Shown one piece after another: positions 27,543 to 30,502 of a stretch of 32,000 nt of DNA. Numbering within the stretch: position 1 is the first letter of the stretch; the number at the start of each line of letters is the position of its first letter. The notes below the pieces were generated by a model. The model was not told the DNA's origin. It ran no database searches and saw only the letters and a list, made by a program, of their open reading frames with translations. This DNA comes from Candidatus Micrarchaeum sp. GTDB taxonomy: Archaea; Micrarchaeota; Micrarchaeia; Micrarchaeales; Micrarchaeaceae. A program made the position numbers and the translations under genes. The DNA lies in the NCBI RefSeq assembly GCF_016806735.1, contig NZ_CP060530.1, positions 720,001 through 752,000 on the forward strand, read 5' to 3'.

Positions 27543-27681
27543 AAACGCACCATAGGTATTGGTTGTTATTGATTATTAATAGCCGTAAAAAGCTAAAACA
27601 CTTATGAAAGGAAACGTTCTTCTGATTAGTAGTTTGGCCACAATTTAAGCTTTTACAGGACTATATGCACAAAACGCAGAA

Positions 27682-27693
27682 ATATATTTAAAG
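27682..27693 (+). promoter_or_regulatory. TATA-like box for micro-ORF A
   Basis: atatatttaaag lies about 47-58 nt upstream of ATG 27740. It is conserved in unit B as gtatttaaag. Confidence 0.4.
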
Positions 27694-27739
27694 ACTGCTG
27701 TTCCATTTTGCTTTGAAATATAAAATATTGGGTGAAAAA

Positions 27740-27817
27740 ATGAAGGGAGGAACAAACGGCGGGAAAATCATAGGAGGACCACACAGCGGAATCGTTGGAG
27801 GACCACACGGAGGATAA
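27740..27817 (+). CDS. Gly/His-rich micro-protein (25 aa), MKGGTNGGKIIGGPHSGIVGGPHGG
   Basis: Hand-translated and too short for the track. GGTGA lies 6 nt upstream of the ATG. A TATA-like box is upstream and T-runs are downstream. The first 8 codons and the whole 5' region are duplicated at 28138-28230. Confidence 0.45.
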   Translation: MKGGTNGGKIIGGPHSGIVGGPHGG

Positions 27818-27825
27818 TCTAAATA

Positions 27826-27858
27826 TTTCTTTTACTTTTTCTATCAGATATTTTTATT
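27826..27858 (+). terminator. oligo-T tracts (archaeal-type terminator) after micro-ORF A
   Basis: tttcttttactttttc and tttttatt begin 9 nt after the stop codon, on the plus strand only. Confidence 0.35.
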
Positions 27859-27865
27859 GTTAGTT

Positions 27866-28129
27866 CTATTTGTATAATGTTCTTTTCTGCGGTTGTATGG
27901 ATTTTCTCTTTACAAGGCTAAGGTATTGATCACTGTAAAGATTGTCGAACTTCCTGCAGATATTTATTATTATAGTTTTTAGGATTAAAGAATCAGATTT
28001 TACGCCTTTTATTACCTTAAAAAGATCGTTTTCTATGGCCTCAGTATCACTCTCTTTTAATACAGGAGATATATGGAATATTCCGTCAGGGGTTTCAATG
28101 TCGTAGGTTAGGATTCGCCTTTTACAAGG
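27866..28129 (-). pseudogene. 5'-truncated remnant of an Lrp/AsnC-like gene (paralogue of the C-terminus of 28301-29716)
   Basis: An 87-codon open frame without a start: PCKRRILTYDIETPDGIFHISPVLKESDTEAIENDLFKVIKGVKSDSLILKTIIINICRKFDNLYSDQYLSLVKRKSIQPQKRTLYK*. It aligns with ...DMETPDGIFYLFPVLKEEDIEKIKGELSETIKGVKFDSLIIERMIIGNICYRKFDNLYSDQYLALVKKKLISAQKRTLY... Confidence 0.6.
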
Positions 28130-28151
28130 TTATACCCCAAAACGCAGAAAC

Positions 28152-28161
28152 GTATTTAAAG
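28152..28161 (+). promoter_or_regulatory. TATA-like box for micro-ORF B
   Basis: gtatttaaag occupies the same position relative to ATG 28208 as the box in unit A. Confidence 0.35.
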
Positions 28162-28207
28162 ACTGCTGTTCCATTTTGCTTTGAAATATAGGATATTGGG
28201 TGAAAAA

Positions 28208-28237
28208 ATGAAGGGAGGACCAAACGGCGGAAGATAA
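28208..28237 (+). CDS. truncated copy of the micro-ORF (9 aa, MKGGPNGGR)
   Basis: It has the same SD and start context as 27740. Relative to copy A, 48 nt carrying both GGPH repeats are missing, with the frame kept. T-runs lie at 28242-28260. Confidence 0.25.
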   Translation: MKGGPNGGR

Positions 28238-28300
28238 GGAATTTTATTCTCTTTTGTTCTAATTAAGTTTAGATTTTATTATGTCGATTTATTAGGTATT

Positions 28301-29716
28301 TTAATTATTATTTGATTTAGTAATATATAACGTTCTTTTCTGTGCCGATATAAGTTTCTTTTTTACCAATGCCAAGTATTGATCACTATAAAGATTGTCG
28401 AACTTCCTGTAGCATATATTTCCTATTATCATTCTCTCTATGATCAGCGAATCAAATTTAACTCCTTTTATTGTTTCGGAAAGTTCGCCTTTTATTTTTT
28501 CGATGTCTTCCTCTTTTAATACTGGGAATAGGTAAAATATCCCGTCTGGGGTTTCCATGTCGCATATATAAGAGAACCTGCTTATTGCTTTATTTGGTTC
28601 ATTTATTATATACTTGTGATGGTTATATTTAGAATTTATAAATTTTTCCTTATTCGTTATATTTTCAAGTATTATGGCATCATATCTTTTGTTTATAGTG
28701 GTTACTGTAAGCGTAGACCTTAATATTGCGCTCTTTCCTTCTTCGTTCATTAAATCTTCATAAGCCCTTTTTGCACTGCCTATTGGAAGATTATATTTTC
28801 TGTCTATCGATGCAAAACTTTTGGTACTGTCTTCGTTCAATTCACAGAGAATGGCGTATTCCCTGTACATCAAGCTAGATGCACCGGGTTTTTCTCCGTG
28901 CTTCTTCCGACGCCAGACCTTCTCTTTTAGAACATCGAAAAACTCTTGGCGTAATGGTACAAATCCATAATCCGTCGCAATTGGAGTTATGTACCACTCT
29001 GACTCTATGCCCTTAAGCACTGCTGCTGTCCTTATGCTGTCTAGGACATCTGCAACCACGTTGTTGTTTTCCGCAACACAGAAAATAGCAAGATCGTATG
29101 TACCCTTGGCAGCAAGGGCAAGCTGCACTCTTGGGTTCTTTTCCAGTGCTGCCCTTACTGCTTCGTGGCTTGGCTTGTCGCTTATGAATTTTGCGAGAAT
29201 CATGTACTCGGAAAAGCCAAGGTTGTTCATGTTAAGCTCGAGCGTGTACTTTATCCCCAGGATTCTTTCCAGCCTTTTTATCCTGTATTCCAGCACATGC
29301 AGCGGTATTCCCGTAATTGAGGAAATCCTTGCATGGGGAAGCCTCGAGTTCATGCTTAATGCTTCCAGCAGCAGAATGTCTTCGTTGCCAAGAGCCTCGT
29401 CAAGCGTTCTTTCAGAAGCGGCTTTCCTTTTTTCCTCAAGTTCCCTCTGGTGTTCAATCATTTTATTGTATTCGAATTCCAGGGCCTTAAGCCTTGCTTC
29501 GCTCTGTTTTGGCTTTGCAGGTATTACTACGCCGTTATCGGTTATCCATCCTATATAATGAGTTATCTTTACCGGCTTTTTTCTTTTGCTGTCCCATTTG
29601 CTCGTGGCCTCAAATACGCAGAATCTTTTGTTTAAGAATTTCAGCTCTATATGCCCGCCGTAAGACTTTTTGAGCTCATCGAAGACCTCTTTTATCTTTA
29701 TGGGAGCTTCCGCCAT
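28301..29716 (-). CDS. two-module Lrp/AsnC-family transcriptional regulator with an extra N-terminal domain
   Basis: Module 1: DILLLEALSMNSRLPHARISSITGIPLHVLEYRIKRLERILGI (HTH) followed by a RAM-like region with PRVQLALAAKGTYDLAIFCVA. Module 2 begins at M283: YAILCELNEDSTKSFASIDRKYNLPIGSAKRAYEDLMNEEG plus a RAM-like C-terminus. Residues 1-100 have no assignment. Confidence 0.85.
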   Translation of the reverse strand: MAEAPIKIKEVFDELKKSYGGHIELKFLNKRFCVFEATSKWDSKRKKPVKITHYIGWITDNGVVIPAKPKQSEARLKALEFEYNKMIEHQRELEEKRKAASERTLDEALGNEDILLLEALSMNSRLPHARISSITGIPLHVLEYRIKRLERILGIKYTLELNMNNLGFSEYMILAKFISDKPSHEAVRAALEKNPRVQLALAAKGTYDLAIFCVAENNNVVADVLDSIRTAAVLKGIESEWYITPIATDYGFVPLRQEFFDVLKEKVWRRKKHGEKPGASSLMYREYAILCELNEDSTKSFASIDRKYNLPIGSAKRAYEDLMNEEGKSAILRSTLTVTTINKRYDAIILENITNKEKFINSKYNHHKYIINEPNKAISRFSYICDMETPDGIFYLFPVLKEEDIEKIKGELSETIKGVKFDSLIIERMIIGNICYRKFDNLYSDQYLALVKKKLISAQKRTLYITKSNNN

Positions 29717-29808
29717 GCAAAGGCCGATTTTATTTATTTTAATTATATTTCCGCGTTCAAGTTATTTATTGGTTCCTATGGGTATACAAATCTAAAATAT
29801 TAAAAAAT

Positions 29809-30163: not shown

Positions 30164-30502
30164 ATGAGTCAAAAACAAAAAGGGAGCGGAAGCGCTGCGA
30201 AACAGCGCGTTAGGGATCCGAAGAAGTTCTTCGTTGTGAAAAGGAATGGAAAGACGTACCACAAGTTCTTTTTAATAAAGCCGAAGCAGGGAATGGACCT
30301 CAACATGCTTGCGAACGATCTTGCAGCACTTCCTGACGTATTGGAGGTTTACGCCACCGAAGGAACCATAGGATTCATGGTAAAGGCAAGATTCGACGGA
30401 GAAAAAGAGCCGGAGCAGGTAGCGCAATACATAGAGAAGAATGTTTCAAAGGACTACGGGACTCTTGTCAGCTACATAAACTTCAAGAGGTGCGCAAGAT
30501 GA
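30164..30502 (+). CDS. stand-alone RAM (Lrp/AsnC ligand-binding-type) domain protein with a basic N-terminal tail
   Basis: FFLIKPKQGMDLNMLANDLAALPDVLEVYATEGTIGFMVKARF matches the beta-alpha-beta-beta pattern of AsnC-type effector domains. No HTH is present. The SD is GGTGGGG. Confidence 0.7.
   Translation: MSQKQKGSGSAAKQRVRDPKKFFVVKRNGKTYHKFFLIKPKQGMDLNMLANDLAALPDVLEVYATEGTIGFMVKARFDGEKEPEQVAQYIEKNVSKDYGTLVSYINFKRCAR

Follow-up and report, generated by a model that had tools for sequence, protein, structure and literature searches.

A Conserved Gly-Rich Micro-ORF Module Convergent with the Mosaic Tail of a Double Lrp-Like Gene in Micrarchaeota

1. Layout of the Locus

The window analysed here is a 32,000-nucleotide (nt) stretch of Candidatus (Ca.) Micrarchaeum sp. 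(contig NZ_CP060530.1, positions 720,001 to 752,000). It contains a minus-strand gene for a 471-residue protein that resembles two Lrp/AsnC regulators fused in one chain. Just downstream of this gene, the segment from 27650 to 28575 consists of two head-to-tail units of about 460 bp, each of which joins a copy of the gene's 3′ end to a short plus-strand module. The module has the look of a promoter, with a TATA box and a transcription factor B recognition element (BRE), followed by a 5′ untranslated region (UTR), a Shine-Dalgarno (SD) sequence, and the first codons of a very small open reading frame (ORF), or micro-ORF. We think it probable that the module is the front of a micro-gene kept by selection and further homogenised between its two copies, and that it stands beside an Lrp-like gene tail that is mosaic and has been duplicated repeatedly. 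The coordinates are collected in Table 1.

Table 1. Features of the duplicated locus, in window coordinates (aa, amino acids; pN/pS, nonsynonymous over synonymous differences per site).
Feature	Position	Strand	Basis or remark
Fused double Lrp/AsnC-like gene, 471 aa	28301..29716	-	Sub-threshold Pfam/NCBIfam matches, AlphaFold2 (AF2), Foldseek
Hypervariable AT-rich C-terminal third of the gene, codons ~320-471	28301..28759	-	Sliding pN/pS, GC content
Unit 2 of the tandem duplication (gene-proximal; active gene 3′ end plus module 2)	28119..28575	.	
Module 2: BRE/TATA TATTTAAA 28153-28160, TTCCATTTTG, 5′ UTR, SD GGTGA 28199-28203, ATG 28208	28138..28230	+	
Micro-ORF 2: MKGGPNGGR plus stop	28208..28237	+	Same peptide in L007
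Candidate archaeal terminator: A6 between micro-ORF SD and ATG, T6 on the gene strand	28203..28208	-	Reading of the sequence
Unit 1 of the tandem duplication (distal; remnant plus module 1)	27650..28117	.	
5′-truncated remnant of the C-terminal half of RAM2	27866..28129	-	Homologous part 27866-28116
Module 1: TATTTAAA 27685-27692, SD 27731-27735, ATG 27740	27670..27762	+	
Micro-ORF 1: MKGGTNGGKIIGGPHSGIVGGPHGG plus stop, 25 codons	27740..27817	+	

In the modules, TATTTAAA has a purine-rich, BRE-like stretch upstream of it, lies 47 nt before the micro-ORF ATG, and faces the 3′ end of the Lrp-like gene. The conserved TTCCATTTTG follows the TATA box and precedes the expected start site. Micro-ORF 1 has been lengthened by in-frame 24/27-nt repeats of a GGP[NH]xG core (27764-27815, plus strand). 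The distal micro-ORF of a related contig, L006, shares this expansion, and there an in-frame TGA splits it into two ORFs.

2. Uneven Divergence of the Two Units

The first-pass annotation of this DNA had described the gene's 3′ end, together with a convergent promoter and micro-ORF, as duplicated in tandem and diverged, with a 93-nt block of five differences and no indels that is much better kept than the coding DNA beside it. A repeat search of the window and a MAFFT alignment of the two units, from which identity was determined by segment, confirm the duplication and reproduce the block: 27670-27762 and 28138-28230 match at 88 of 93 positions (94.6%), with five mismatches and no gaps. The 20 nt to the left of the block (27650-27669) are 74% identical. 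To the right, the micro-ORF tail and spacer (27763-27856) are 40% identical with 20 gap columns, and the part derived from the gene's 3′ end (27857-28116 versus 28301-28575) is 68.8% identical (179/260) with 15 gap columns. Outside the unit, identity is at the background of 34%. Given the identity of the remaining unit, the binomial probability of at least 88 matches in 93 is 5e-13, and the superior conservation of the block is confirmed on the segment-wise alignment. Only these two copies of the block are present in the window.

The locus is base-identical in four independent assemblies of the strain (over 3.8-9.7 kb), so the repeat is not an assembly artefact. GC content is about 0.29-0.34 across 27550-28850, compared with 0.46-0.55 in the flanking genes and 45.8% in the genome. 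This low-GC tract spans both units and the C-terminal third of the Lrp-like gene, and since it is found in all strains it is a property of the locus rather than a sign of recent import.

The uneven divergence had been credited to the module. The module is indeed conserved, as described in Section 3, but the contrast is due equally to fast turnover of the C-terminal third of the gene, which behaves as a mosaic cassette (Section 5). A diversity-generating retroelement was considered and rejected: the mismatches are not adenine-specific (A 23/108, C 24/48, G 13/37, T 21/67), and there are indels as well.

3. The Module in Related Genomes

The comparison set consists of fetched contigs, given L numbers, that encode close and distant homologues of the 471-residue protein. 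An nhmmer profile built from the two modules of the window was run on these contigs. It finds the module downstream of, and convergent with, the homologous gene in L005-L009 (76-89% protein identity), L013 (47%), and L012 and L019 (47-48%). Contigs L056-L058 carry it also, and in the complete genome of Ca. Mancarchaeum acidiphilum it follows the first of two tandem paralogues. The expectation that the module would face Lrp-like genes elsewhere is thus borne out at homologous loci of relatives, and recognisable modules remain beside genes of just 47-62% identity. The aligned modules share TATTTAAA, 8 nt, TTCCATTTTG, and then a GGTGA-type SD a few nt before the ATG. The TTCCATTTTG...GGGTGAAAA-ATG part is nearly invariant among all close relatives, whose gene tails are 60-83% identical. 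A scan of metagenomes with the pattern TATTTAAA-N8-TTCCATTTTG, which is too loose, gave 120 chance matches and no real module, and no copy was found in viral contigs, so nothing points to an element that is mobile or carried by viruses.

Linkage to the gene was counted by criteria that are independent of similarity to the window, namely SD-led, Gly-rich micro-ORFs within 600 nt of the gene end. Of 39 homologous gene ends, 19 have such a micro-ORF behind them, and the relatives concerned include some whose protein identity is as low as about 30%. Near gene ends, 35 are on the convergent strand and none on the gene strand, and the 204 kb of remaining locus DNA contain two (Poisson probability 3e-75). 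The flank opposite the Lrp-like gene changes (MtaB here, RFC in L012 and L019, FtsZ in L013) while the micro-gene stays; that is, the micro-gene travels with the Lrp-like gene rather than with the other flank.

About 40 micro-ORFs were gathered, mostly of 6-12 codons and rich in Gly. Their SD-like motifs, a few nt before the ATG, are mostly GGTGA, GGTGG, or AGGT, and T-rich DNA lies past every stop codon. Examples of the peptides are MKGGPNGGR (unit 2 of the window and L007), MKGGANSGG, MMGGPKGG, MGGPRGGG, MNGGPNGGG, and MEKGPAGGG; others are MKGPLGGN, MEGPAGGY, MEGGSG, and MREGGGGG, and L022 has MDDPGNGD. On none of the contigs examined are the ORFs of 7-12 codons at these loci called as genes. 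Behind one gene in each of L018 (4573-4736), L024 (4573-4735), and L056 (4442-4556), two or three SD-led, Gly-rich micro-ORFs follow one another in an arrangement resembling a micro-ORF operon.

In the window/L005/L006 lineage, 5 of 75 positions separate one module copy from the other; L008 and L009 have the duplication as well, and there the count is 14-16 of 75. It follows that the near-identity of the BRE/TATA region here needs homogenisation beyond selection. Could homogenisation be the whole story? In that case, a gene-conversion tract would by chance have covered a block with no function. The divergence of the module copies in L008 and L009 is close to that of the tails, so the very high identity is specific to the window/L006 lineage, which fits such a view. 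However, the near invariance of the TTCCATTTTG-to-ATG part across genomes with diverged gene tails, and a micro-ORF architecture that is kept beside genes only about 30-47% identical, are not explained by it. Pure gene conversion fails before this cross-lineage conservation, and we regard concerted evolution alone as largely refuted and highly improbable. Both causes suggested by the first-pass annotation thus find support: selection in the conservation across genomes, and gene conversion in the homogenisation within a lineage.

4. Peptide, RNA, or Both

Three observations would suit a module that acts without being translated. GGAGGA is enriched 6-fold on the convergent strand, the bias toward GGA codons exceeds genome usage, and the A6/T6 tract could be the terminator of the gene. 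The module would then be a non-coding small RNA, or a 3′ UTR or terminator element of the Lrp-like mRNA, with GGAGGA/UCCUCC as the functional motif and the ORF incidental. Yet 38 of the 39 GGAGGA hexamers in the downstream zones are in the GGA-GGA (Gly-Gly) frame of a short, SD-led ATG ORF. The length changes of micro-ORFs are multiples of three and so remain in frame, and some lineages, such as L010, encode the P-N-x-G core of the peptide by other nucleotides and lack GGAGGA. Pro and Ser codons vary synonymously (CCA/CCT, AGC/AGT). A search of Rfam with the module returned no match above threshold, only a chance match at E = 0.67, and no significant RNA fold is seen on either strand (z-scores of -0.8 to +1.3). 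The evidence from the reading frame disfavours a purely non-coding RNA, which we consider quite unlikely.

Gly makes up 161 of about 355 micro-ORF sense codons (~45%), versus 6.5% in the window's genes. The abundance of Gly codons, the strong use of a single one (GGA), and the T-rich tracts past every stop codon bring to mind a Gly-sensing leader, in which translation of the micro-ORF would set read-through of the T-tracts into the antisense of the regulator gene and so tune the regulator to the supply of Gly-tRNA. In L045, L046, and L048 just 3 nt separate the end of the ORF from the stop codon of the gene, with a T7 tract inside the gene's antisense, and Lrp-family proteins are amino-acid sensors. 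The same fold z-scores, together with the absence of alternative hairpins at the locus, speak against such a leader, and so does what lies downstream: there is no co-oriented gene, only the antisense of the Lrp-like gene or of a remnant. To our knowledge, leader-peptide attenuation is not established in archaea. Regulation of this kind is, in our judgment, improbable.

On the gene strand, the T6 at 28203-28208 is the first oligo-T past the stop codon of the Lrp-like gene. If it is used, the 3′ UTR of the gene would be antisense to the whole micro-ORF.

5. The Mosaic C-Terminal Third of the Lrp-Like Gene

Sliding pN/pS comparisons reveal an abrupt change along the gene. Between the window and L006, pS is 0.04-0.16 over codons 1-200 and 0.53-0.85 past codon 320. 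L007 and L008 are near-identical up to codon 320, except for a block at codons 240-280 (pS 0.46), and from there on pS is 0.72-0.95. Between strains with a pS of 0-0.16 over the first 320 codons, that of the tail ranges from 0.5 to 0.95, and dN/dS (nonsynonymous over synonymous substitution rates) from 0.05 to 0.3; such ratios speak for the exchange of old functional alleles rather than for positive selection or decay. In all strains the tail has a low GC content, 0.25-0.41 compared with 0.40-0.53 upstream; for the segment 28301-28759 the values are 0.25-0.33, versus 0.42-0.48 upstream. The C-terminal third is a recombining, AT-rich mosaic cassette that is near saturation between otherwise near-identical strains. 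It is unusual for a cytoplasmic, regulator-like protein to have a C-terminal domain as mosaic as a surface antigen or a toxin, and the mosaic tail suggests that strains have diversified in what the regulator senses.

A second hypervariable block lies at 28997-29116 (minus strand), codons ~200-240, in RAM1, the first of the protein's two RAM domains. Pairs with different types of this block (window-L005, L005-L006, L005-L008, L009-L057, and window-L009) have pN of 0.25-0.35 and pS of 0.59-1.09, and P0004 and P0006 carry one common type (IIFYEAENNTILSLDLDSIR).

6. The Remnant and the History of Duplication

The duplicated piece of the gene encodes residues ~386-471, which form the second half of RAM2 and the C-terminal helix. 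In the distal unit, the remnant is open for 87 codons (28129-27869, minus strand) up to a TAG stop at 27868-27866, and its protein is 68% identical to the C-terminus of the 471-residue protein. It has no ATG, GTG, or TTG early enough for an ORF of even 25 codons. The persistence of the open frame had been called unexpected under neutral decay. That argument carries little weight: in a neutral simulation 10-31% of copies remain open after 20-40 substitutions, so the open frame alone is weak evidence, and its use as strong evidence for selection on the remnant is rejected. Set against the family alignment, the remnant also lacks the invariant G432 and is shorter by two single-codon deletions. 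The remnant of L008 carries an in-frame stop, and disabling changes are present in two of four remnants altogether. The dN/dS of remnant copies is 0.13-0.29.

The window's remnant is closest to two active gene ends, those of L005 (83% nt identity) and L008 (80%), and the remnant unit also has in common with the L005 and L008 units at least the initial ~25-45 nt of the non-coding spacer. In L005 there is only one unit, which directly adjoins MtaB. A junction at which CCTTTTACA runs into the tail from about codon 386 is common to the window, L006, L008, and L009 and points to one old event and subsequent mosaic exchange.

At least three independent duplications of the tail and micro-gene unit have taken place. 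L019 carries a second module and a remnant of 25 codons that is 100% identical; its sister L012 has one unit. L022, whose gene is 40% identical to that of the window, has three units, in which promoter and UTR are far better kept than the tail fragments. In Ca. Mancarchaeum acidiphilum (CP019964, L180:3381-6769) there are two full tandem paralogues in which the last ~44 aligned tail residues are nearly identical; beyond them come a degenerate second module (MVGGY) and a 60-aa ORF, which represents an N-terminal piece of a third copy, and there is a tRNA-like sequence in the vicinity.

These arrays raise the possibility, which we consider unlikely, that the truncated tails are silent cassettes: a reservoir from which the C-terminal half of RAM2 is swapped, each tail with its cognate micro-gene as a specificity pair. 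One tail type is silent in the window and L006 and forms the active gene end in L005 and L008 (80-83% identity of the C-terminal part, with a matching spacer start), and L007 and L008, identical over 320 codons, have different tails. Active and silent copies within the genomes of L006 and L009 show patchy similarity. The low dN/dS of the start-less remnants and the repeated origin of the arrays agree with a reservoir; the disabled state of half of the remnants does not. Moreover, the four assemblies of the strain are base-identical over 9.7 kb, which argues against high-frequency switching, although consensus assemblies would miss rare variants. Neither a recombinase nor a defined recombination site was found, and ordinary homologous recombination between strains, with occasional unequal crossover, yields the same pattern.

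Two observations concern the contigs themselves. In L007 (1998-2058, compared with L008 1895-1945) a segment of ~49 nt, from BRE/TATA to TTCCATTTTGCTGTG, is inverted relative to the micro-ORF at the end of an ENA contig. It is flanked by CAACAGCA/TGCTGTG, and for its last 4 nt a fold-back is a better match than an inversion with clean ends. The promoter may be truly inverted here, or the arrangement may be an artefact. Contigs L004, L007, L056, L057, and L058 end inside or just past the module, consistent with assembly breaks induced by the repeat; the repeated module breaks metagenome assemblies at this locus.

7. The Lrp-Like Protein and Its Neighbours

The AF2 model of the 471-residue protein, built on 26 homologues, has a predicted local distance difference test (pLDDT) score of 86. 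It consists of an N-terminal β domain, a long helix, and two units of a winged helix-turn-helix (wHTH) and a RAM domain of β-α-β-β-α-β topology, in the order wHTH1-RAM1-wHTH2-RAM2. In Foldseek the best matches of the model are to NirDL at 1e-11, and many structures of Lrp/feast-famine regulatory proteins (FFRP) match at 1e-6 to 1e-4 with TM(target) scores (template modelling) of 0.7-0.78. By sequence, the Pfam models HTH_24, HTH_AsnC, and AsnC_trans_reg score 18.5-21.2 bits, below their gathering cut-offs of 21.9-27, and the NCBIfam model LysM matches residues 111-231 at 3e-8, with 33.5 bits versus a cut-off of 180. The predicted structure thus has the Lrp/AsnC fold while the sequence falls short of curated thresholds. 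Sequence-specific DNA binding and a response to an effector are putative properties of the protein. All homologues are from Micrarchaeota or mis-binned relatives.

The mRNA of the Lrp-like gene looks leaderless because its TATA box lies ~25 nt before the ATG. A motif, TATACCCATAGGAACCAATAAATAAC, is found 45-70 nt upstream of the start codon (~29765-29792, minus strand); L005-L009 and L057 keep it as the window does, its conservation in Mancarchaeum is weaker, and it is a candidate autoregulatory operator. An operator shared by the micro-gene and the gene's own promoter was also considered. It was rejected, since the 18/20 match between 27673-27692 and 29738-29757 is lost in other strains; the match is probably a mere resemblance of BRE/TATA elements.

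Upstream of the Lrp-like gene, on the opposite strand (30164-30502, plus), is a gene for a 112-aa protein with a weak, sub-threshold match to an AsnC-type RAM domain. It is kept at L009 2216-2554, L013 458-805, L042 1662-1997, and L056 2218-2556, and as a conserved upstream neighbour it suggests that the locus may have three conserved parts. The left neighbour of the locus encodes the housekeeping methylthiotransferase MtaB (TIGR01578, 391 bits), and GatD comes next. A role of the micro-ORF as the precursor of a ribosomally synthesised and post-translationally modified peptide, processed by this radical-SAM neighbour, was discarded, for the neighbour is MtaB, and where another gene takes its place the micro-ORF is still found beside the Lrp-like gene.

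8. Proposed Origin and Role of the Micro-Gene

What the comparison shows is the layout of the locus, how well it is kept, its bias to one strand, and a constrained micro-gene set against a mosaic tail. Our proposal, which we consider probable, is that the 93-nt block is the working front of a micro-gene in its own right. The block would comprise BRE/TATA, a 5′ UTR of ~28 nt, the GGTGA SD, the ATG, and the first codons, and the product of the micro-gene would be a Gly-rich peptide, usually of 7-12 residues. The micro-gene would be a lineage-wide, tail-to-tail partner of the Micrarchaeota fused double-Lrp-like gene, located just downstream of it. Purifying selection would keep it nearly constant, and gene conversion would additionally have homogenised the two copies in this strain's lineage. 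Unequal recombination would repeatedly duplicate the unit of gene tail and micro-gene, the window carrying one old duplication. The proximal tail would be expressed as part of the gene, and the distal tail (27866-28129) would be a displaced, start-less copy in early decay with its micro-gene intact.

Transcription would start ~22-25 nt after TATTTAAA, that is, near 27712-27716 and 28180-28184, to give a micro-gene mRNA of ~90-130 nt that would end in the T-tracts past the stop codon. This mRNA and the 3′ UTR of the regulator would be fully complementary, forming a sense/antisense couple, and the translated Gly-rich peptide may act on or with the regulator. We favour such a couple with a translated peptide, in which the peptide, RNA pairing, or both may matter.

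Several points weigh against this proposal. The comparison set is small, is made up of metagenome contigs, and is phylogenetically non-independent, and 20 of the 39 homologous gene ends have no micro-ORF by the criteria used. GGA makes up 78% of micro-ORF Gly codons, versus 30% in the window's genes, so a role of GGAGGA at the RNA or DNA level, or local AT bias, may contribute. The dN/dS of the remnants is below the prediction for plain decay, and describing them as displaced and decaying may be too simple. Finally, the promoter, the terminator, and the translation of the micro-gene are all read from sequence.

It is tempting to carry the cassette idea of Section 6 one step further. Tandem silent tails, each with its cognate Gly-rich micro-peptide gene, would be recombined into the gene to change the C-terminal half of the effector-binding domain, and the peptide would be its ligand or partner. 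We think this unlikely; if true, it would amount to a peptide/receptor specificity pair in a DPANN archaeon.

A search of the literature returned no report of the module. Its ingredients (a small ORF, convergent antisense transcription, tandem duplication, and gene conversion) are known, and their configuration seems to be undescribed. On the Micrarchaeota contigs examined, the micro-ORFs make up a conserved, strand-specific family linked to a single family of regulators, and they offer a concrete candidate for regulation by small peptides or antisense RNA in the DPANN archaea. A cultivated strain exists in Ca. Micrarchaeum harzensis A_DKE, for which RNA-seq reads have been published (BioSamples SAMN15702898 and SAMN15702859; PMC8975820).

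9. Comparison with Known Systems

The Lrp/AsnC and NirDL/AhbAB proteins resemble the 471-residue protein in having two wHTH and RAM units in one chain. The latter differs by its extra N-terminal β domain and long helix, by sequence matches below the cut-offs, and by its hypervariable second RAM. We know of no convergent micro-gene partner for the Lrp/AsnC-NirDL family.

The leader-peptide attenuators (trpL, hisL, and leuL) likewise have a tiny, SD-led ORF that is rich in the codons of one amino acid and is followed by T-rich DNA. The locus differs from them in the lack of alternative hairpins and of a co-oriented downstream operon, in its archaeal host, and in its orientation, which converges on a regulator gene. 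Archaeal transcriptomes are reported to contain cis-antisense pairs where gene ends converge. The likeness here consists of two facing promoters and predicted transcripts that overlap across the 3′ UTR; the difference is that the antisense partner is a conserved micro-ORF, presumably translated, and that the overlap is a prediction from sequence.

With the pilE/pilS system of Neisseria the locus has in common start-less, 5′-truncated copies next to an expressed gene, and mosaic sharing. In contrast to that system, there is no within-strain variation among the four assemblies, the cassettes number one or two, and the target is a cytoplasmic, regulator-like protein instead of a surface antigen.

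The CdiA-CT/CdiI (C-terminal toxin/immunity) system and the Rhs orphan CT/immunity modules also offer a parallel. They share a conserved 5′ body with a variable C-terminal cassette, the same cassette being active or orphan depending on the strain, and tandem 5′-truncated tails downstream, each followed by its own small gene. The fold at our locus is, in contrast, regulator-like; only Lrp-like domains and no toxin or secretion domain were found, and PADLOC gave no match, so that a defence system was set aside. Here the small gene is convergent, has just 7-12 codons, and is fairly conserved rather than hypervariable.

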